A DNA stretch of 64,000 nucleotides from an uncultured Bacilli bacterium (lineage in GTDB: Bacteria > Bacillota_I > Bacilli_A > RF39 > UBA660), in NCBI GenBank assembly GCA_934096805.1, contig CAKOMW010000001.1:371712-435711 (forward strand), read 5' to 3'. A program made the translations under genes and the position numbers. The notes under the pieces are model-generated. The model was given only the letters and a program-made list of their open reading frames with translations, had not been told where the DNA came from and did not search any database. Positions 11,792-64,000 of the stretch are shown here, in pieces. Each line of letters starts with the position of its first letter. The stretch's first letter is position 1.

Positions 11792-13318
11792 TTGATAGCT
11801 TTATCAATGTTTAGTATAGGGATAATAACACTAAGCACTTATGCGTTATATAATAGTGAGTTAGTGACAGGTGAAAACACTATAAAATCAGGACAGGTAA
11901 AAATGAGTTATACTGAAGTAAATGAATTGGCTTTAAATAATGCGTTACCTATGAAAGATGAAGAAGGGAAAAATCTTAATGATTACTTTGATTTTACTGT
12001 GTCATCATGGATAAAAACAAATGCTAATGATAGTACAGAAAGAAAATTAAATTATAATATAGTAATAGAAATGATATCAATGTATATTAATGGAATGGAA
12101 ATACAAGAAGGAAATGATTATTATGTCCCAGGAAAACTTTTATCAGATTATATGTATAAAGTGTATTTAACTACTTTAGATGATAATGGTAATGAAACAG
12201 AAATAACAGAACCAATGACAATTGAAGAGTTAAATAATTATATTATTAAGTCTCAAGAAGAAACATTTAAAAATGGTAAAGCTCAAGTAGATACAAAATA
12301 TAGACTAAGGATATGGGTAGACTATAATTATGATGTAAATATATATAAAACTTTTAATGAAAATGACAATGGATTTACCGTAGATAGTGTAGGCTATAAA
12401 TTTAGAGTAAATGTAAATACAAATAAGATAGAACAACAAGAAATGATACCAATACTTAATATTCCATTGGGAAAAGATAAAACAATAAAAGTAACTCATG
12501 AAATAGATGATACTTTACAAGTAGATAATAAGTTTGCAACAGAATATAGATATACAGGTAAGAATCCTAATAATTATGTTTTATTTAATAATGAATTATG
12601 GAGAATAATAGGAGTAATACCTACTGAAGATACTTCTGGTAATGTAGAAAATAGATTAAAAATAATAAGAACTGAATCGATAGGAAATAAGAAATGGAAT
12701 AGTTGTGAATATACTGTCAAAAATTCTATTTATACTTGCAATGATTCTGGTAAATATTTAAATGATTGGACTGGTGCAACTTTAAATACATATTTAAATA
12801 ATGATTATTATAATACATTAACAAGTGATGCCAAAAACATGATAGGAACAACAAAGTATTATCTTGGAGGATATAGTGGTATAAATATAACATCTGATGT
12901 AATGTGGCAATATGAAAGAAAGAATGATACAAATAGAACAGAATATTATTATGGAACAAACCCAGTAATGCAAAATGATGCATCAAAAAAGATAGCGCTA
13001 ATGTATGCAAGCGATTATGGATATGCTTCAAGTAATGTATGTAAATCTGTCGTTACCAGCATAGGAGCATATGATTCATCTTTTTGCACCTCAACAAATT
13101 GGTTATATTCTGGTTCTGATGAATGGTTACTTCCGCAGAGTTCAGGCGATTCCAGCTATGCTTTCAGTGTGGATTCGACTAACGGTGTCGATAACTACTA
13201 CAACCTAGTCTACATAGACGAGTATACGGTCCGCCCAGTCCTTTATCTGTCATCTAACGTAAAGATTTCAGGTGGAAATGGGACTTCGGAACAACCATAT
13301 CAACTTAGTATCAGTTGA
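11792..13318 (+). CDS. Secreted surface protein, paralog A: TasA/SipW-type N-terminal signal region plus C-terminal DUF1566/Lcl-like C-type-lectin-fold domain. A-rich foreign composition.
   Basis: N-terminal LSTYALYNSELVTGENTIKSGQV resembles the TasA/camelysin AFNDIKS...GTLDL region. The C-terminus ends ...EWLLPQSS...YTVRPVLYL (DUF1566-like). The last ~40 codons switch to NNC codons. The TTG start at 11792 is the ORF-track call; an alternative ATG at 11716 becomes in-frame with G10. Confidence 0.6.
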   Translation: MIALSMFSIGIITLSTYALYNSELVTGENTIKSGQVKMSYTEVNELALNNALPMKDEEGKNLNDYFDFTVSSWIKTNANDSTERKLNYNIVIEMISMYINGMEIQEGNDYYVPGKLLSDYMYKVYLTTLDDNGNETEITEPMTIEELNNYIIKSQEETFKNGKAQVDTKYRLRIWVDYNYDVNIYKTFNENDNGFTVDSVGYKFRVNVNTNKIEQQEMIPILNIPLGKDKTIKVTHEIDDTLQVDNKFATEYRYTGKNPNNYVLFNNELWRIIGVIPTEDTSGNVENRLKIIRTESIGNKKWNSCEYTVKNSIYTCNDSGKYLNDWTGATLNTYLNNDYYNTLTSDAKNMIGTTKYYLGGYSGINITSDVMWQYERKNDTNRTEYYYGTNPVMQNDASKKIALMYASDYGYASSNVCKSVVTSIGAYDSSFCTSTNWLYSGSDEWLLPQSSGDSSYAFSVDSTNGVDNYYNLVYIDEYTVRPVLYLSSNVKISGGNGTSEQPYQLSIS

Positions 13319-37243: not shown

Positions 37244-37951
37244 TTGCTTTTGATACTTGTTATTTTTACAGGTCTTTTTAAGGAATTTTTGTTAGTTTTT
37301 TCAATTATTATTATTCATGAATTGGGGCATTTATTTAGTGCTGTTTATTATAAGTGGAATATTGATAAGATAAGTATATATCCTTATGGAGGGTGTGTTA
37401 GTTTTAATGAGAAGTTAAATAGACCTATTAGGGAAGAGTTTATTATTTTAATAATGGGTCCTTTGGTACAAGTGTTTTATTTATTGGTGTTTTATTTATT
37501 TTTTAGATTTGGTTTTGTTTCTTTTAAGACTTTTGTTTTGTTTAAGACTTATAATTTTACACTTCTTTGTTTTAATTTGTTACCTATTTATCCTCTTGAT
37601 GGAGGGAGGATTGTTAATTTGTTGTTTAACTTTTTTTTACCTTATAGGAAGTGTAATTTTTTAATAATAGTTATTTCTATTTTGTTTATATTTATTGTTA
37701 TTGTTAATTGTTCTAGTGTTAATTTGGTTATGATGATGGTATTTGTATTGTCTGAAGTTTTTGTTTTTATTAAACAACAAGATTATTTATATAATAAGTT
37801 TTTGCTTGAAAGGTTTCTTTTTAATTTTTCTTTTTATAGAGTTAGGGTTATAAAGAATAAGAATAATTTTTATAGGGGTAAGAGGCATGTGCTTTATAAT
37901 AATTTTAAATATGTTACGGAAAAGGAGTATTTAAAGGGGAGGTATAGATGA
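37244..37951 (+). CDS. spoIVFB: Site-2 protease, M50 family (SpoIVFB-like intramembrane metalloprotease)
   Basis: HELGH inside TM helix 1 and an LDGG motif (IYPLDGGRIV) in a later TM helix. Confidence 0.7.
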   Translation: MLLILVIFTGLFKEFLLVFSIIIIHELGHLFSAVYYKWNIDKISIYPYGGCVSFNEKLNRPIREEFIILIMGPLVQVFYLLVFYLFFRFGFVSFKTFVLFKTYNFTLLCFNLLPIYPLDGGRIVNLLFNFFLPYRKCNFLIIVISILFIFIVIVNCSSVNLVMMMVFVLSEVFVFIKQQDYLYNKFLLERFLFNFSFYRVRVIKNKNNFYRGKRHVLYNNFKYVTEKEYLKGRYR

Positions 37952-39117
37952 AAAGGGTTATATTTCTAATGATTGTTATACTTTTAGGTGCTTTGTATCT
38001 TAATTATGATGGGGATACTAAGAAGAGTGATAATGTGCCTACTTCGGATTCTTCGATGAAGGGGGTATTTGTTTCTTATATTGATTATGCAAGTTTGAAG
38101 GGGAAAGAGGTTAAGGAACAAAAGAATATTATTAATGAAATGGTTAATAATGTTTCATATTTTGGTTTTAATACAGTTATATTACAAGTTAGGGCTTTTT
38201 CTGATGCAATCTATGATTCTTCTTATTTTCCTTTGTCTAGTGTGATGGCTTATGATGAACAAGGGGTTTTGTTTGATGTTTTATCTTATTTTATTGAGAA
38301 ATGTAATAATAAGGATATTTTAGTTTATGCATGGATTAATCCTTATAGGATTTCTAATGATGGGGATAAGAGTAAAATTAGTAAAAATGCTAGTTATTAT
38401 AAGTGGCTTGATACAAATAAAATTGGAGTATATGATAATGGGATTTATTTTAATCCGGCGGATTCTGATGTTTTAGAGCTTATTTTGAATGGGGTTTCAG
38501 AGATAGTTAAGAATTATAAGGTTGCTGGTGTTTTATATGATGATTATTTTTATCCTAATGATGTAATAGATATGCAGAATTATGAGGATTATAAGGGTGA
38601 GCTTTCTTTGAATTCGTATAGGGTTAATAATATTAGTAATTTGCTTAAGGAGTCTTATCTTAGGGTAAAGAGTATTAATAAGGATGTTTTGTTTGGGATT
38701 AGTCCTTCTGGTAATGTGGAGAATAATCTTAATTATGAATATTTAGATATTAAGAATGTTTTAAAGGATAAGTATTTGGATTTTATAATGCCTCAGCTTT
38801 ATTATGGGTTTAATAATCAGAATAAACCTTATATGAAAGTGCTTAAGGAATGGAGTGGTCTTAATGTTAATAAGATAGATTTATATGTAGCTCTTTCTTT
38901 GTATAAGTCTGGTATGGTTGATACTTATGCTGGTAATGGTAAGGATGAGTGGGTTTCTAATAGTGATATTATTAAGAGACAGGTTCTTTCTTCTTCAGTT
39001 GTTAATGATTATAGTGGTTTTGTTATTTTTAGGTATGAATATTTGTTTGAGATTTTTGATAATGATAATTTAGTTTCTGAGGTTAATGGTTTACAGAAGA
39101 TAATGAATATTAAATAA
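37948..39117 (+). CDS. Glycoside hydrolase-like family 10 (GHL10, YngK-like) lipoprotein/secreted protein
   Basis: Signal peptide, then FGFNTVILQVRAFSDAIYDS... typical of GHL10 TIM-barrel proteins. Confidence 0.55.
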   Translation: MKRVIFLMIVILLGALYLNYDGDTKKSDNVPTSDSSMKGVFVSYIDYASLKGKEVKEQKNIINEMVNNVSYFGFNTVILQVRAFSDAIYDSSYFPLSSVMAYDEQGVLFDVLSYFIEKCNNKDILVYAWINPYRISNDGDKSKISKNASYYKWLDTNKIGVYDNGIYFNPADSDVLELILNGVSEIVKNYKVAGVLYDDYFYPNDVIDMQNYEDYKGELSLNSYRVNNISNLLKESYLRVKSINKDVLFGISPSGNVENNLNYEYLDIKNVLKDKYLDFIMPQLYYGFNNQNKPYMKVLKEWSGLNVNKIDLYVALSLYKSGMVDTYAGNGKDEWVSNSDIIKRQVLSSSVVNDYSGFVIFRYEYLFEIFDNDNLVSEVNGLQKIMNIK

Positions 39118-39191
39118 TTTTTTGGATATTTTATTTACACTTTTCATTAATTTTGATATAATTTGTGTTAGAATATGAGGAGTTGAATTTG

Positions 39192-41123
39192 ATGAAGAAA
39201 AGTATTTATTATTTATTTATATTTGGATTTTTATTTTTTGTATTTAGTTTTAGTGTTAATGCTTTAGAAGCTAGTATGAGTGTAAAATGTAATACTTTGA
39301 AGCTTAATGGTAGCTCTACTTGTAAAGTTTATGCAAATATAAGTGGAGGAGGTCTTGAAGGTGTTAGTGTTTCTTCGTTAGAGATTGTTTCTGGTGATGA
39401 TGTTGTTGCTATTGCGGAAACTTTTAAGGCTAATGATAATAGATTTTCTGCGGGAAAGAATGTGTATTTAGGTACTTTTAAGATAAAGTCTTTGGGAAAG
39501 AATGGTACAGGTAAAGTTAATTTAAAGCTTGTTGCTAGGAGTGATCCAGGGCAAGCTACTGTTACTCTTAGTCCTAAGACGGGAGTTGTGGCAACGTTTA
39601 ATGTTTTGTCTTCGGTTGCAACACTTTCTAGTATAAGTGTTAATGATGCTCCGATTAATGGTTTTGATAGCAATGTTTATTCTTATAAACTTAGTGGAAT
39701 TACTACTAGTAGTGTAAAGGTGTCTGCGCTTGGTAGTCTTTCTAGTGTAAAGGTAAGTGGTGCTGGTACTCATAAGTTGAAATGTGGTAATAATACTGTT
39801 GTTTTAAATACTGTTTCACAGGATAAGAGTAAAAAGTTAAAATATACACTTACTATTAATAGAACTTGTGATGATAATACAACTTTAAAGAATATAGTTT
39901 TATCTAGTGGTACTTTGGCTCCTGCTTTTAGTGCTAGTACAACTGATTATAAAGTTAATGTTGATTCTAAGACTGAAAATATTACAATTAATGTTGATAA
40001 AGGTAGTGAAGGGCAAAAAATAAGTGGTCTTGTTAATAATAAAAAGCTTGCTTTTGGTGATAATACTTTTAAGATAAAGGTTACTAGTGAAAAGGGTTCT
40101 AGTAGGACTTATAAGATTATAGTTAATCGTGCTGATGATAGGTCTAATAATGCGCTTTTGTCCACTCTTACTTTAGATAGTGGTAAGCTTAATTTTGATA
40201 AGAATGTATTTAATTATGAAGTTAAGGTTTTAAATACTGTAGAAAAAATTAATGTTGTTGCTAATGCAGAGGATGCAAAGGCTAAGGTTGATGTTACTAA
40301 TCCTGATACTTTGAAAGAGGGAGAAAATAACATAGTAGTTAAGGTAACTGCTGAGAATGGTTCAACACAAGAGTATACGATAAAGGTTAATAGACTTAAA
40401 GCTGGAGAAGTTATGGGGGATAATCCTAATATAAAGTTACTTACTATTACAGGTTATACTATTAATTTTAATCCTCTTACGACTAGTTATAATTTAAAGA
40501 TTGATAATAAGACTGATAGTTTAGGAATTAATGTTATAATGGAAGAAGATGGTGCAACTTATTTAATTAGTGGAAATGAAAACTTAAAAGATGGTTCGGT
40601 TATTGTTATTGATACTACTTCTTTAGATGGAACTAAGAATACTTATAAGATTATTATTGAAAAGAGTAATACTGATTTTTATATTCTTATTGGGGCTGGA
40701 GTGCTTCTTGTTGGAAGTCTTAGTGCTATTATAGCGATAATGGTTAAAAAGAGAAAAGGTAAGAATAATGGTATTATGGATTCTATAGGTAGTAGTGCTG
40801 GTAGTGTGGATGCATCAAAGAGTGATGTTGTGGAAGAGGTTAATCCAATTCAAGAAGAACCTGTAGAAGGTGGTGACTTTGGTAAGAGTAAGGGTTGGTT
40901 TAGAAAGCATAAGAGTGTACCTAAGAATGAAGTCATGTCTTTTGAAGAATTAAAGAAATATGATCCTACTAATAAAGGGAATGGTATTGTAGGTAGATCT
41001 GCTCCATCAGAAGAGTATGAAAGGGTAGAAATTACTGAGGATCAAACTAAACAATGTCCTAAGTGTGGACATAGAATTAATTTTTCTGCTAAAGTGTGTC
41101 CTTATTGTGATAAAGAGTTTTAA
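39192..41123 (+). CDS. Surface protein with multiple cadherin-like beta-sandwich repeats, a TM anchor and a C-terminal zinc-ribbon tail
   Basis: Signal peptide, then repeats of L(S/T)L..G.L.P.F.....Y.V (Cadherin-like pfam12733 pattern). TM helix YILIGAGVLLVGSLSAIIAIMV, then a C-terminal CPKCGH...CPYCDKEF. Confidence 0.6.
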   Translation: MKKSIYYLFIFGFLFFVFSFSVNALEASMSVKCNTLKLNGSSTCKVYANISGGGLEGVSVSSLEIVSGDDVVAIAETFKANDNRFSAGKNVYLGTFKIKSLGKNGTGKVNLKLVARSDPGQATVTLSPKTGVVATFNVLSSVATLSSISVNDAPINGFDSNVYSYKLSGITTSSVKVSALGSLSSVKVSGAGTHKLKCGNNTVVLNTVSQDKSKKLKYTLTINRTCDDNTTLKNIVLSSGTLAPAFSASTTDYKVNVDSKTENITINVDKGSEGQKISGLVNNKKLAFGDNTFKIKVTSEKGSSRTYKIIVNRADDRSNNALLSTLTLDSGKLNFDKNVFNYEVKVLNTVEKINVVANAEDAKAKVDVTNPDTLKEGENNIVVKVTAENGSTQEYTIKVNRLKAGEVMGDNPNIKLLTITGYTINFNPLTTSYNLKIDNKTDSLGINVIMEEDGATYLISGNENLKDGSVIVIDTTSLDGTKNTYKIIIEKSNTDFYILIGAGVLLVGSLSAIIAIMVKKRKGKNNGIMDSIGSSAGSVDASKSDVVEEVNPIQEEPVEGGDFGKSKGWFRKHKSVPKNEVMSFEELKKYDPTNKGNGIVGRSAPSEEYERVEITEDQTKQCPKCGHRINFSAKVCPYCDKEF

Positions 41124-41188: not shown

Positions 41189-42748
41189 ATGCCAGTTAGA
41201 GAAAAGTTTGATAGTTTTAAAAAGGATAATCCTTTGTTTAGAGATGTAAAAGAGTATAATAAGTATTTATTAATGTTGATTAGTGTTTCTATATTAGTAC
41301 TTACTGGGGTTATTTCTTATTTTGTAAGTGGTTCTTATGCTAGATGGAATATGGTTGTGGAGTCTAGTAACATATTGAAGTTAGGGGTTAAAAGTCTTAA
41401 TTTGGATGAAAGTGGTGCTAACAAGCCTGAACTTACAAGTAATATGATACCGGTTTATTATGATAATACAAGTAGTAGTTGGAAGAAAGCTGATGAAAAT
41501 AATAGGGATGAAGCTTATAAGTGGTATGATTATGATAGTAAAATGTGGGCAAATGCTGTAACTGTTACAGAAGCTAATAGAGATACTTATTTGAAAGCAA
41601 GCGCAGGTACAGAAATACCAATGGATGATATAAATACAATGTGGGTATGGATACCAAGATATACATATACATATCTGAAAACTAATACACCAGAAGAAAT
41701 AAAGATAAAGTTTGAGAAGGGAATAGAAAGCACAGGTACAATAAAGTGTACTGATAATGTATCAGGAAGTGGAACAACATCACAAACATGTACAGATACA
41801 ACAAATGGAGGTTTAAAAGCAGGAACAAGTACATATACCCATCCAGCTTTCACATTTGGAGATACAGAACTAACAGGATTATGGGTAGGTAAGTTTGAGA
41901 GTAGTGCAACAACAATACCAACAAGTGCTTCAACAACAGAATCTACAGTAATAATAAAACCAAATGTCCAATCATTAAGATATAAAACAGTATCATATCA
42001 ATTTAGAGATGCAAGACAAATGGAGAAAGCAAATAATGTATATGGCTTTTCACAAAGTAATAACACAACATTTAATTGGAATGGTAATTTAACTGGAGAT
42101 ATCAATAATATAGATATACATATGATGAAGAATACAGAATGGGGAGCAGTAACATATTTATATCATTCAAAATATGGAAGATGTACTTCTGGTACTTGTG
42201 TAGAATTAACAATAAATAACTGTAGTACATATACAACAGGAATAGGAGCAGATACAGTAAGTGCTAATGAGTCTTCGATAACATGTACGACAAATAAGAA
42301 TAAATATAATGGAGAAAGCGGAGTAAAAGCAAGTACAACAGGAAATGTATATGGTGTGTATGACATGTCTGGAGGCACATGGGAATATACAATGGGCAAT
42401 ATGGTAAATTCATCTAATCAATTTTATACATCAAGTGCAAGTAATTGGAGTACAACAACATATCCATTATCAAAGTACTATGATAGTTATACATATAATA
42501 CTGATGAAGCAACATATTCAAAAGGAAGGTTAGGAGATGCAACAATAGAAATGAGTCCTTCATCTAGTTCTACTACTTCATGGTATTCAGATTATGCCTT
42601 CTTCCCATACTCGAACATGACTTGGTTCCTACGTGGGGGTGGCTACAGTAATGGTACGGGTGTGGGTGCTTTCTCCTTTGGATTTGGCAATGGTTCTGCG
42701 CTCAACTTCCGCTCGTTTCGGGTTTCTCTTGGCGTTCAGGCCTCTTAA
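41189..42748 (+). CDS. Secreted protein, paralog B: SipW/TasA-type signal-anchor plus C-terminal FGE-sulfatase-like C-type-lectin-fold domain (candidate DGR variable protein)
   Basis: N-terminal ...GSYARWNMVVESSNILKLG after a hydrophobic anchor. The C-terminal GNVYGVYDMSGGTWEYT ... RGGGYSNG ... NFRSFRVS matches the FGE-sulfatase signature motifs (G.YDM.GN.WEW, RGGS., GFR). The last ~45 codons are GC-rich NNC/NNT. A GGAGGT RBS precedes the start. Confidence 0.65.
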   Translation: MPVREKFDSFKKDNPLFRDVKEYNKYLLMLISVSILVLTGVISYFVSGSYARWNMVVESSNILKLGVKSLNLDESGANKPELTSNMIPVYYDNTSSSWKKADENNRDEAYKWYDYDSKMWANAVTVTEANRDTYLKASAGTEIPMDDINTMWVWIPRYTYTYLKTNTPEEIKIKFEKGIESTGTIKCTDNVSGSGTTSQTCTDTTNGGLKAGTSTYTHPAFTFGDTELTGLWVGKFESSATTIPTSASTTESTVIIKPNVQSLRYKTVSYQFRDARQMEKANNVYGFSQSNNTTFNWNGNLTGDINNIDIHMMKNTEWGAVTYLYHSKYGRCTSGTCVELTINNCSTYTTGIGADTVSANESSITCTTNKNKYNGESGVKASTTGNVYGVYDMSGGTWEYTMGNMVNSSNQFYTSSASNWSTTTYPLSKYYDSYTYNTDEATYSKGRLGDATIEMSPSSSSTTSWYSDYAFFPYSNMTWFLRGGGYSNGTGVGAFSFGFGNGSALNFRSFRVSLGVQAS

Positions 42749-42844
42749 GCCTATTTAATATAAAGTTTAATATAATAAGATATAATATTTAAAAAGGGTT
42801 CTAATGACTCTTTTTTTTCATATAATTTTTTAGGAGGAATAGTT

Positions 42845-43667: not shown

Positions 43668-44603
43668 TTGGTGAAGTTTATGTTTTGGAAGAAGTCTATT
43701 AATAAGATATTTTTTACTACTTTGATTGTTTTTATTTGTTTTATTATGTATAGTTTTAATTTGACTGATTATGATAGTTCTAGTAGTGGTGGGATTTCTT
43801 CTAATGTTAATTTGTATACTGTTAATAATGATTCTTATGTTTCTATGACTAGTGTTTTTCTTGATAGTGATAGTTTGGAGGATAAGGTTCGTGATGTTCT
43901 TGATATAATGGTTGTTGATAGTAATAAGAGTGCACTTTTACCTAGTTATTTTAATCCTATTCTTCCTAAGAATACTAAGGTTTTGGATGTTGTTTTTGAT
44001 GGAGATGTTTTGAAGATTTATTTTTCTTCAGAGCTTATGGATATAACTAGTGAACAGTCGGAGAAAATGATTGAGTCTATTACTTATACTTTGCTTGGTT
44101 TTGATGAGGTTGTTGGGGTAGAGATTTATGTTTCTGGTTCTTTGCTTAAGTATGTTCCTAATACTAATAAAAAGTTGCCAGCGGTTCTTACTTCTTCTTA
44201 TGGGGTTAATAAAAGTTATGATCTTAGTAGTAATATGGATATTAAAAGGATTTTGCTTTATTATTATACGATGAATAATGATTCTTATTATTTGATTCCT
44301 GTTACTAAGTATGTTAATGATAAGAGGGAGAAGGTTGAGATTATTATTGAGGAGTTGTCTGGTTTTATTTATCATGATAATTTGGTTTCGATGCTTAGTA
44401 ATAATATTAGGCTTGTTGATTATAAGGTTTCTTCGGATAGGATTTCTTTGGTTTTTGATGAGGGATTTACTTCTTTTTCTGATATAATGGTTAAGCCTTT
44501 GTTTTGTTCAATTTTTGCTAATTATGATGTTGATTTTGTTGATATTAGTGTTAATGAGGATAAAATTTTAGAAAAAAGTAAAAAAGATATTGAAAATTAT
44601 TAA
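43668..44603 (+). CDS. gerM: GerMN-domain germination/sporulation protein GerM-like
   Basis: Signal anchor plus two GerMN-like repeats. Adjacent to gerE. Confidence 0.55.
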   Translation: MVKFMFWKKSINKIFFTTLIVFICFIMYSFNLTDYDSSSSGGISSNVNLYTVNNDSYVSMTSVFLDSDSLEDKVRDVLDIMVVDSNKSALLPSYFNPILPKNTKVLDVVFDGDVLKIYFSSELMDITSEQSEKMIESITYTLLGFDEVVGVEIYVSGSLLKYVPNTNKKLPAVLTSSYGVNKSYDLSSNMDIKRILLYYYTMNNDSYYLIPVTKYVNDKREKVEIIIEELSGFIYHDNLVSMLSNNIRLVDYKVSSDRISLVFDEGFTSFSDIMVKPLFCSIFANYDVDFVDISVNEDKILEKSKKDIENY

Positions 44604-44635
44604 ATTTTGTTGTATAATTAAATGGCATTTGAGGA

Positions 44636-44712
44636 TGTCCTGGTAGCTCAGCTGGATAGAGCATCGGCCTTCTAAGCCGGCGGTCAGGGGTTCGAATCCC
44701 TTCCAGGACGCC
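44636..44712 (+). tRNA. tRNA-Arg (anticodon TCT)
   Basis: Manually folded cloverleaf. Acceptor gtcctgg/ccaggac, D-arm gctc...gagc, anticodon loop cttCTaa, T-arm agggg-ttcgaat-ccctt, encoded CCA. Confidence 0.85.
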
Positions 44713-44716
44713 ATTT

Positions 44717-44793
44717 CCGGAGAGTGGCTCAACTTGGTAGAGCACTTGGTTTGGGACCAAGGGGTTGCAGGTTCAAATCCTGTCTCTCCGACC
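44717..44793 (+). tRNA. tRNA-Pro (anticodon TGG)
   Basis: Acceptor cggagag/ctctccg, anticodon stem cttgg/ccaag with loop ttTGGga, T-loop ttcaaat, encoded CCA. Confidence 0.85.
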
Positions 44794-59552: not shown

Positions 59553-60569
59553 GTGACTGTTTTAACAAAGAAAAGACTAAAGCCAATGATGAGTATTGAT
59601 GATATGATTATTAGTCTTAAGGCTAAAAATATTAAGTTTAATTATATTAGTGAAGATGAGGTTAAAAATTATTTGATGTTTAATAATAGTTATTATAATG
59701 TGTTGAGTTATGAGGGGAATTTTATGAAGTATCCTAGTCCAGCAGGAAAGTATGAAGGAATGTTTATTGATTTAGATTTTGCTTATTTAAAGGATATGTC
59801 TATTATTGATTTAAGGGTGAGGTTTCTTCTTTTAGATATGATTTTAGATATAGAACATTATCTAAAGTTAAGAATACTTAATATGATGTATGCTATAGAA
59901 CAAGAAGATGGCTATAGAGTAGTTAATTTATATTTAGAAAATGATTATAATAATGAAAAAAGATTACATTCTAGTATAAGGAAGAAAGCTTTTAATAGTT
60001 ATTATAGAAAGATGTTTTCTGATATTGATATGGATGATGATAAGAAACTAGAAGATATACCTATATGGGATTTTTTAGAGATAGCAACACTGGGTGAGCT
60101 TGTAGATTTTTATGATTTTTTTACAAAAGAATATGACTTGAAAATTGATAAAGAATATGTTCATATACTTAGAGATATAGTAAGATTAAGAAACGCTGCC
60201 GGACATAATACCAATGTTTTAACTGACTTAGGAGAAAGTGATAAGCCTCAAAGGCCACATATGCATGTAATTAGGTATTTAGATAGGTGTGGAATACGAT
60301 TGAGGGCTAGATATAAAAGATTATCTAACTCAAAAATAAGACAGATTACATATACACTTTATATGTTTAATAAAATAGTAACAAGTGAAGGAGTGAAGAA
60401 AAAGATAAATAAAAAAATAAACTACTTGTTTTATAAGAGGATACCTAAGAACAAAGATTATTATAAGAATAATGATTTATTAAAGTCTATTTATTATTAT
60501 TTTGATAAGATAATAAGTATTGATTATAATCCAAAAAAATCTGAAAGAAATTTCAGAAAAAAGGCTTGA
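59553..60569 (+). CDS. Abi_2 family abortive-infection protein (AbiD/AbiF-like)
   Basis: ~340 aa with Abi_2-like conserved blocks (LMFNNSYYNVLSYEGNF ... LRNAAGHN). The likely start is GTG 59553 behind a GGAGGTG RBS; the ORF track starts at 59478. Confidence 0.6.
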   Translation: MTVLTKKRLKPMMSIDDMIISLKAKNIKFNYISEDEVKNYLMFNNSYYNVLSYEGNFMKYPSPAGKYEGMFIDLDFAYLKDMSIIDLRVRFLLLDMILDIEHYLKLRILNMMYAIEQEDGYRVVNLYLENDYNNEKRLHSSIRKKAFNSYYRKMFSDIDMDDDKKLEDIPIWDFLEIATLGELVDFYDFFTKEYDLKIDKEYVHILRDIVRLRNAAGHNTNVLTDLGESDKPQRPHMHVIRYLDRCGIRLRARYKRLSNSKIRQITYTLYMFNKIVTSEGVKKKINKKINYLFYKRIPKNKDYYKNNDLLKSIYYYFDKIISIDYNPKKSERNFRKKA

Positions 60570-62403: not shown

Positions 62404-64000
62404 TGTGAGGAAAAATATTACTAAAGATGATATAAAAAAGATGTTACCTGCTTTAGTAGTGTTATTTATTTTAATAGCATTAGGTACATATGCTTTTGAT
62501 AAAGTTGATTTACTTGGTAAACAAAATTTAGGAATAGTTGCTAATGAAGAGGTGGCTTTAAGGCTTGTTGAGGGGGAACAAGATTTTAAAGTAGGGAATA
62601 CTCCTCTTAGTGATAGTGCTGGGAAGGCTCAGACTACTTATTATGAGTTTAATGTAGAAGGGGTTTCTAATGTTGTATATAATTTAGATTATTATTTGTA
62701 TTTGATACCTAAAAATGGTGGTAATACAGTTGATGCTTCTTTTGTTAAACTTTATCTTACTAAAGTGGTTAATAATTCTGAGACAGTAGTGGTTGATGTT
62801 ACTACTTTAGATAAGTTAAAGGATTTTGGATTTAATAAGTTAGTTACAAATAGCACTTTTAATTTTACTAGTAATAGTAAGACTACTAAAACAGATACAT
62901 ATAGATTAAGAGTTTGGTTAGCTGAAGGTGCTACTGATAATGAAGAAACGGCTCCTGATGTAAAAGAAACTGATGATGGTCTTAATATTAAGGCTATATC
63001 AGGAGGGTATAGTTTTAGTATGGGTGTTAGTTCATATAAGATTGGTGAACCTAATAAACCAGAGTTAACTAGTAATATGATACCTGTGTATTATGATAGT
63101 ACGAATGCAGTATGGAAAAAAGCAGATAGTAGTAATACAAATGAAACATATAAATGGTATGATTATGATAATAAAATGTGGGCAAATGCTGTGACTGTTA
63201 CTGAAACTAATAGAGATACTTATTTGAAAGCGAATGCAGGAACAGAAATAAATATGAATGATATAAATACAATGTGGGTATGGATACCAAGATATACATA
63301 TACATATTTAAATACAAATACACCAGAGGAGATAAAGATAAAGTTTGAAAATGGAACAGAAAGTCATGGTACAATAAAGTGTACTGATGCAGTAACAGGA
63401 AATGGCACAACATCCCAAACATGTACAGATACAACAAATGGAAGTTTAAAAGCAGGAACCAGTACATATACACATCCAGCTTTTACATTTGGAGATACAG
63501 AATTAACAGGATTATGGGTAGGAAAGTTTGAGAGTAGTGCAACAGAAATACCAACATCATCATCTACAACAGAATCAACAATTATAATAAAACCAAATGT
63601 CCAGTCATTAAGATATAAAGCAGTATCATATTTCTTTCGCGATGCCCGACAAATGGAGAAAACAAGTAATGTATATGGTTTTCCACAAAGTAGTAGTACA
63701 ACATTTAACTACAACGGTAATTTAACTGGAGACACAAATAATATAGATATACATATGATGAAGAATACAGAATGGGGAGCAGTAACATATTTATATCATA
63801 GTAAATATGGAAGATGTACAAACGGTTCATGTGAAGAAATAACAATAAATAATTGTATTAATATGACAACAGGAATAGGAGCAGACACAGTAAGTGCAAG
63901 CAGGTCTGATACAACATGTACAACAGATAAGAATAAATATAATGGAGAGAGTGGAGTAAAAGCATCAACCACTGGAAATGTATATGGTGTGTACGACATG
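62404..64000 (+). CDS. Secreted protein, paralog C (partial, runs off the window end): TasA/SipW-type N-terminal region plus the same FGE-sulfatase-like lectin-fold core as 41189-42748
   Basis: GTG start behind an AAGGAG RBS. N-terminal LGTYAFDKVDLLGKQNLGIVANEEVAL resembles the TasA N-terminus. From NKPELTSNMIPVYYD to NVYGVYDM it is visibly almost identical to paralog B (only scattered residue and base differences, 63054-64000 vs 41419-42367). Confidence 0.6.

Follow-up and report, generated by a model that had tools for sequence, protein, structure and literature searches.

A variable region of diversity-generating retroelement type, probably a relic, in a predicted lectin-fold protein of an uncultured gut Bacilli bacterium

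Remote targets are documented for chromosomal diversity-generating retroelements (DGRs) (PMC5758913). DGRs with a MutS-like gene (MSL) also contain avd, and the Treponema DGR is counted among the HRDC-containing ones (Wu et al. 2018, PMC5758913). In phage BPP-1, an initiation-of-mutagenic-homing sequence (IMH) and a hairpin or cruciform are required for efficient homing (PMC3240598). The locus described here lies in 64,000 nt of an uncultured Bacilli bacterium (GenBank assembly GCA_934096805.1, contig CAKOMW010000001.1, positions 371,712 to 435,711), called the window below. The subject is gene B and the variable region (VR) at its 3' end, VR-B. VR-B is interpreted as a real VR of DGR type, probably a frozen relic (probability roughly 0.6).

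The system is read as an MSL+avd chromosomal DGR with multiple C-type-lectin-fold targets, and its mechanism is already well known. It resembles the Architecture D of Wu et al. (2018), to which the Legionella DGR belongs, in gene order and in the pairing of MSL and avd in intact relatives. It differs in that the template repeat (TR) of the lineage stands upstream of MSL, avd and the reverse transcriptase (RT) gene and follows a structured, conserved spacer of ~270-330 nt, and in that the window's strain has deletions in MSL, avd, RT and TR. Unlike the TvpA DGR of Treponema denticola, with its seven remote targets, gene B has a degraded cassette as its neighbour, VR-B departs from the rule that remote targets differ from the TR at adenines only, and the accessory genes are MutS-like and avd. 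Sequence identity of gene B to TaqVP, the variable protein of the Thermus aquaticus DGR (PDB 5VF4), is only ~15-20%; gene B further differs in its N-terminal membrane anchor and its place in a multi-copy family of gut Bacilli, and no working cognate DGR for it was found in reachable sequence.

Variable region of gene B and its family

VR-B has a GC content of 53% and an A content of 12%, like the VRs adjoining TRs among those listed. The 3' end of the gene (42590-42748) consists of A 14%, C 24%, G 27% and T 35%, versus A 42%, C 13%, G 19% and T 26% in the gene body (41400-42580). The window has a GC content of 30%, with T 40.7%, A 29.5%, G 20.4% and C 9.4% on the forward strand. The 120-nt segment at 42621 reaches GC 54% at A 10%; among segments of this length, only the tRNA-Arg/tRNA-Pro cluster (44601-44720) is GC-richer than VR-B. 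The switch in composition is abrupt and far outside the local background. The GC-rich, A-poor C-terminus reported in a preliminary description of the window, made from the sequence alone, is thus present; so are its three motifs (GVYDMSGGTWEYT, RGGGYSNG and NFRSFRVS) in the translation of gene B, and its quoted codon string is exact.

VR-B is collinear, codon for codon, with the AAC-rich TRs of the lineage. The nearest TR lies beyond the window end, on a near-identical scaffold (ENA ERZ28615777 scaffold_12, 388 kb). This scaffold was reached with the full-length paralog C protein (P0024), and two of its stretches, L001 and L002, overlap the window (L numbers designate collected loci). Over 124 aligned nucleotides, VR-B is changed at 17 of 26 adenine sites and at 18 of 98 non-adenine sites of the L001 TR (odds ratio 8.4, p=8e-6). 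When five VRs are compared, 25 of 26 TR-adenine columns are variable versus 27 of 98 other columns (p=9e-11). Collinearity and the strong concentration of changes at TR adenines bear out the proposal that this end of gene B is a VR of DGR type. The VR is the most diverged part of paralogs and orthologs; the reverse pattern, an identical VR in otherwise divergent genes, was not seen.

Differences from the nearest TR are not confined to adenines. The 18 non-adenine differences, concentrated in three places (the 5' end, codons 491-492 and the 3' end), are far too many for the L001 TR to be regarded as the direct template. VR-B ends in ..LGVQAS versus ..LGALD in the TR, and its 3' end differs from that of the '..GALD' TR at 6 of 32 non-A positions; in L004, the C-equivalent gene has a nearly identical 3' end. 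All orthologs of gene B share the end '..CAGGCCTCTTAAGCC', and the sequence downstream of VR-B is likewise conserved. Folded as DNA, this downstream sequence forms just a 4-bp stem (-2.7 kcal/mol), not better than shuffled sequences. A 7-bp hairpin, GACTGAC-GAA-GTCAGTC, follows the VRs of two paralogs (VR-C and VR-D) and the VRs preceding the TR in L090, L091, L093 and L094; this hairpin contains GC pairs, stands at the stop codon and parallels the element needed for retrohoming in the Mtd/DGR system of BPP-1. VR-B thus has neither an IMH matching the TR 3' end nor the hairpin, and VR-C and VR-D have the hairpin. Because of the 18 non-adenine differences, the other 3' end and the lack of a hairpin, VR-B is not a demonstrable target of the L001 TR. 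The corresponding mismatches are 13 at adenines and 6 at other positions for VR-C against the L001 TR (5' 87 nt), and 8-9 at adenines and 2 at other positions for each of VR-C and VR-D of L004 against their own TR.

Intact relatives show the expected pattern. Locus L028 carries a target, a MutS_I open reading frame (ORF), a TR and an RT (RVT_1, E 2.4e-19, motif YMDD); ~19 of its 21 TR/VR mismatches (90%) fall at TR adenines. The same holds for 10 of 10 mismatches in L032 and for 20 of 22 in L090. In relatives reached through the Avd fragment of scaffold_12, a MutS_I protein of 117 aa and an Avd of 116 aa (NF033474, E 7e-19) precede an RT; L088 and L089 are intact for the MutS-like gene, avd and the RT N-terminus, with an Avd 92% identical to the remnant. 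Judged by these arrangements, homologs of gene B are bona fide DGR targets. Many of the DGR RT homologs (P0128-P0246) are only ~192-205 aa long and have no precomputed RVT_1 match; some lie on long contigs (<=135 kb). Truncation or splitting of the RT genes may account for this, as may gene calling.

The fold agrees with this assignment. An FGE-like lectin-fold C-terminus, claimed by the preliminary description, is accepted, but the FGE-sulfatase model PF03781 matches below threshold only (aa 368-404, E 0.0075, 16.4 bits versus a cut-off of 23.3). No NCBIfam family was found for proteins A, B, C or D. A sequence-profile search of the PDB with gene B gave a single, non-significant match, 5VF4 (E 0.2), and the fold was therefore tested by structure prediction. 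The AlphaFold2 model, built with 95 homologs as input, is confident (mean predicted local distance difference test score, pLDDT, 84.3; predicted template modelling score, pTM, 0.84) and shows a large globular region after an N-terminal helix. Its top structural match is a DGR variable protein. VR-B occupies the 3' end of the gene, which encodes the C-type-lectin-fold domain of the predicted structure. In the model, the helix at aa 20-47 would be a signal anchor and the remainder of the protein would be extracellular; the variable face would bind ligands.

The family is large. Homologs of gene B number at least 7995 at E<=1e-3, and relatives occur in 568 stretches of species-representative genomes, in several copies per metagenome-assembled genome (MAG), often five to seven among the loci returned. 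Hosts are many 'uncultured Bacilli' gut MAGs (human cohorts, e.g. Hadza), a sheep-rumen MAG and others. At their C-termini, the 60 closest homologs have in common the scaffold WYSDYAxFPxSSxSWFxRGGxYxxGxxAGAFxFxxxxGxAxxxxSFRVSLG, where x is almost any residue, and the end of most close family members is ..QAS. Entropy per column is 1.96 bits at aa 468-510 versus 0.89 at aa 60-440. The hypervariable residues are those of the AAC, AAT and CAA codons of the TR, so that hypervariability falls at adenine-templated codons within a conserved scaffold. By their last 150 nt, members form one group with GC 50-66% and A 9-19%, which includes gene B, and another with GC 29-45% and A 21-34%; the bodies of all are ~33% GC.

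Degraded cassette, paralogs and recombination

Past the window end, scaffold_12 carries in order paralog C, paralog D, a spacer of ~330 nt, the TR, an 85-aa ORF, a bAvd fragment, a 42-aa ORF and an unrelated MuF_C gene. A TR cassette after paralog C, suspected in the preliminary description, is therefore found there, with paralog D, a MutS-like gene and avd. The TR lies beyond position 64000 by 3.7 kb, at a distance of 25 kb from VR-B. MSL, Avd, TR and RT are all represented, and all four are damaged. Compared with full-length TRs and with every VR, the TR is 21 nt short. The 85-aa MutS-like ORF has no Pfam match and, aligned with L088, has an in-frame loss of ~96 nt. The bAvd fragment is 76 aa long and covers positions 1-69 of the 107 of profile PF22296. 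Alignment of L088 with L001 places a loss of ~1 kb between avd codon 76 and a point near the RT C-terminus; the intact L028 RT aligns with the 42-aa ORF at its residues 296-329 (E 3e-4). To judge by these losses, the cassette is dead. Strain L003 has the cassette in the same state as L001, strain L004 retains only the first 85 nt of the TR, and L092 holds another lone, decayed TR. A single working DGR with several remote targets, as proposed earlier, was not found: the cassette in reachable sequence is degraded and its RT deleted.

In the expected place of the RT stands a 216-aa gene (L001 16443-17093) whose product has a phage MuF C-terminal domain. Next come an AAA_14/DUF4143 ATPase and a YafQ-type toxin pair, so that genes of mobile or defence type occupy the site of the decayed cassette. 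The spacer directly upstream of the TR (L001 15060-15344, window-equivalent ~67460-67750) is non-coding, ~270-330 nt long and conserved across diverged cassettes; it also occurs in L004, L089-L091, L093 and L094. Its fold comprises four or five hairpins, with 14 base pairs in which both partners have changed and pairing is maintained. For the stretch from VR-D to the TR, Rfam returned no family and only an RsmY-like match attributed to chance (E 0.2, 16 bits versus 57). In DGRs of MSL type, the spacer may form the 5' portion of the DGR RNA.

Further searches for a TR or RT gave the following results. No TR was found in the window; a blastn search with 42500-42760 at word size 7 gave only chance matches of 11-19 nt. 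No RT was noted in the window, the scan for YxDD/SQ motifs having covered the collected loci only. A TR with the '..QAS' end is absent from the 94 collected loci, in which this end occurs in VRs only, and from the TRs of the metagenome scan. The TR pattern AACTACAATAATGGTACGAAC had 0 matches in 185,579 species-representative genomes, among which the window's species is probably not represented, since the best related locus is only 59% identical. The viral collection gave 0 matches each for the TR-upstream motif and the '..QAS' VR end; as far as this collection shows, the DGR system would be chromosomal, not phage-borne.

Paralog C is 83% identical to gene B over aa 65-393 (tblastn). Paralog D, which follows paralog C on scaffold_12, is an 895-aa protein and ends in ..GALD. 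VR-C and VR-D are the closest VRs to VR-B, at 60-68% identity. The window differs from L001 by 24 clustered mismatches in 11.6 kb and from L002 by 11 in 21.6 kb. Differences from scaffold_12 are limited to three tight clusters of single-nucleotide polymorphisms (SNPs), at 41927-42102, 59834-60090 and 63662-63733; two of them lie inside genes B and C. Over 41869-42168, gene B and paralog D share 93-98% identity, and at 11 of 11 SNPs the scaffold_12 allele of gene B has the base of paralog D. The clusters point to gene conversion between paralogs, or to assembly cross-talk.

L083 and L086 contain syntenic orthologs of gene B, with the same cadherin-like and SpoIIIAH neighbours. Their flanks are 98-100% identical to the window, and divergence spans 41400-42750. 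Identity of gene B to these orthologs is 98% at the 5' end, 74-92% in the body and 64-68% in the VR. DGR action by itself would leave the body unchanged; since the SNPs carry the base of paralog D, gene conversion (or assembly cross-talk) adds variation. Coordinates of all features are given in Table 1.

Table 1. Features of the window and of the adjoining sequence on scaffold_12
Feature	Position	Strand	Remarks
Gene B, 519-aa membrane-anchored protein	41189..42748	+	ORF; large DGR target-protein family of uncultured gut Bacilli
N-terminal hydrophobic helix of gene B, aa 20-47	41246..41329	+	Model helix H20-47; sequence KYLLMLISVSILVLTGVISYFVSGSYA
A-rich conserved body of gene B with FGE-like C-type-lectin scaffold	41400..42592	+	Mosaic between paralogs
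VR-B, 151 nt, collinear with full-length TRs of the lineage	42593..42743	+	Same length as L090 TR, indels 0
3' end of VR-B, TCGTTTCGGGTTTCTCTTGGCGTTCAGGCCT	42713..42743	+	At IMH-like position, '..QAS' class
Sequence downstream of VR-B	42744..42790	+	Without 7-bp GACTGAC/GTCAGTC hairpin (DNA fold)
Paralog C, cut at window end	62405..64000	+	Full gene L001 9992..11968, 658 aa, ends ..SLGALD, own VR and hairpin
AAC-rich TR	L001 15341-15470, window-equivalent ~67745-67874		Translation DANFPNSSNSWFQRGGNYNNGTNAGAFNFNNNNSFRASLGALD
TR and degraded cassette	Window-equivalent ~67745-68750		Outside the window
'Paralog A' gene	11792..13318		Not homologous to gene B

Origin and present state of VR-B

A DGR origin of VR-B is held to be very likely. 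The following course of events is proposed. An AAC-rich TR would be transcribed and reverse-transcribed with random misincorporation opposite adenines. In mutagenic retrohoming, the cDNA would replace the 3' end of the target gene and so write 42593-42743. The responsible DGR would be of the type with the order target(s), hairpin, structured spacer of ~300 nt, TR, MutS-like gene, avd and RT. The last rewriting of VR-B would have come from a related TR whose 3' end is of the '..QAS' type, unless gene conversion brought VR-B in from a diversified paralog. Strains would differ today through past DGR activity and recombination among paralogs. VR-B is probably inactive at present: the only cassette found is dead, and VR-B is therefore most likely a frozen relic. 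A frozen state is supported by the identity of VR-B in the window and in scaffold_12, with the same protein on two more contigs, by the missing hairpin, and by the 18 non-adenine mismatches of VR-B compared with 2 each in VR-C and VR-D of L004 against their own TR. Several points weigh against this interpretation. The TR and the cassette are known from the near-identical scaffold_12, outside the window itself. An intact DGR of '..QAS' type on another contig could act on VR-B in trans. By a simple test, several GC-rich VRs of relatives are also without a hairpin, and the missing hairpin of VR-B is therefore not decisive. The VRs of L083 and L086 are AT-richer (41-45% GC) and look as if they were decaying towards genome composition; since VR-B keeps the full GC-rich, A-poor imprint in comparison with them, it may have been written or imported fairly recently. 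The contigs that share an identical VR-B may stem from related samples.

An origin unrelated to DGRs, with the composition due to a Gly/Ser/Phe-rich peptide or to transfer from a GC-richer organism, would agree with the sub-threshold Pfam match to FGE-sulfatase and with a window in which neither TR nor RT was found. It is nevertheless highly improbable, as synonymous positions are GC-enriched too (e.g. ggc, acg, gcg, ctc, cgc), VR-B is collinear with AAC-rich TRs and biased towards changes at their adenines, homologs adjoin intact DGRs and the best structural match is a DGR variable protein. Peptide content alone as the source of the composition is rejected on account of the GC-rich synonymous positions together with TR collinearity. 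Quite unlikely, too, is a GC-rich patch that was never diversified at this locus and arrived ready-made, by gene conversion or allelic replacement, from another paralog or strain with a VR written by a DGR. It is suggested by a strain divergence that covers 41400-42750 and not the VR alone, between flanks that are nearly identical; by the similarity of gene B to paralog D over 41869-42168, with scaffold_12 carrying the D allele at every SNP there; and by the quite different, AT-richer VRs of the syntenic orthologs L083 and L086. However, a donor carrying an identical VR was not found, VR-C and VR-D being the nearest to VR-B, and the end common to all gene B orthologs argues for a 3' boundary stable at the locus. 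Such an import overlaps with the relic interpretation and does not exclude it.

Unlikely as well is an active remote target, rewritten in trans by a second, intact DGR elsewhere in the genome with a TR ending in ..GVQAS or ..GAQAS, in the manner of the Treponema multi-target system. The prevalence of ..QAS ends among close family members suggests a class of TRs with that end, the GC-rich, A-poor imprint of VR-B is strong, intact cassettes of the same lineage, with the 92% identical Avd, occur in other samples, and the remote targets of chromosomal DGRs offer precedents. Against it, no '..QAS' TR is found in the 94 loci, the viral collection or the TRs of the metagenome scan; among the RT homologs listed, none lies on a contig as long as the long scaffolds of this strain, a result that is not decisive; VR-B is invariant across the contigs compared; and no hairpin follows it. 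Rewriting of VR-B in trans to this day by an unobserved DGR with a TR ending in ..QAS, for which no downstream hairpin would be needed, is likewise unlikely. If the same genome held an intact RT and a TR ending in ..GGCGTTCAGGCCT with A-only differences, VR-B would be an active remote target.

Neighbouring genes and receptor repertoire

The first ~210 nt of gene B have an ordinary, T-rich composition, unlike the A-rich body. The bodies of B and C (41400-42580 and 63020-64000) contain A 42% and T 26%; the forward strand of the window shows the opposite, although the coding strand is the same. This reversal, relative both to the first ~210 nt and to the window, suggests a history of the receptor module separate from that of the N-terminal anchor. 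Directly upstream of gene B, 39165-41123 encodes a 652-aa protein with four cadherin-like beta-sandwich repeats, a membrane segment and a C-terminal zinc ribbon, preceded at 37948-39117 by a GHL10 glycosyl-hydrolase-like protein. Downstream of gene B are the sporulation genes SpoIIIAH, a GerE-type regulator and a GerM-like gene; the host is therefore taken to be a spore-former.

Paralog A, named as a paralog of gene B in the preliminary description, belongs to a different family; only a 28%-identity N-terminal stretch is shared (tblastn E 0.56). Its sole Pfam match is a weak one to DUF6273. The 3' end (13100-13318) looks like a second class of VR, with A falling from 44% to 25% and GC rising to 43%. 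Homologs in L043, L013, L070 and L020 stand just upstream of B-type genes and share the scaffold WLLPQ.S...F.V.S.G.V...AVRPVLYLSSNVKISGG.GTS..PYQLSIS around a hypervariable middle; over the last ~110 nt, L043, L013, L070 and the window hardly differ. No TR for this 3' end was found in the window or in the collected loci.

The genes described form a multi-copy family of DGR targets in uncultured human-gut Bacilli, unnamed by current Pfam and NCBIfam models. The locus is a clear case of DGR decay, in which three independent deletions disabled the cassette and the targets are intact and still exchanging segments. Where a gene of an AT-rich genome ends in A-poor, GC-rich sequence, this can correctly point to a DGR VR without a TR or RT in view; in annotation, orphan VRs are not to be counted as active sites of hypermutation. 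The finding bears on how gut bacteria vary their surface receptors. If VR-B were still rewritten in trans, the reading judged unlikely above, uncultured gut Bacilli would more broadly keep a very large repertoire of membrane-anchored lectin-fold receptors, with more than 8000 variants in public data and up to seven or more genes per genome in the loci returned; hypermutation of the tip by DGRs would work together with gene conversion between the bodies of paralogs; and lineages would repeatedly lose the cassette, leaving frozen receptors.

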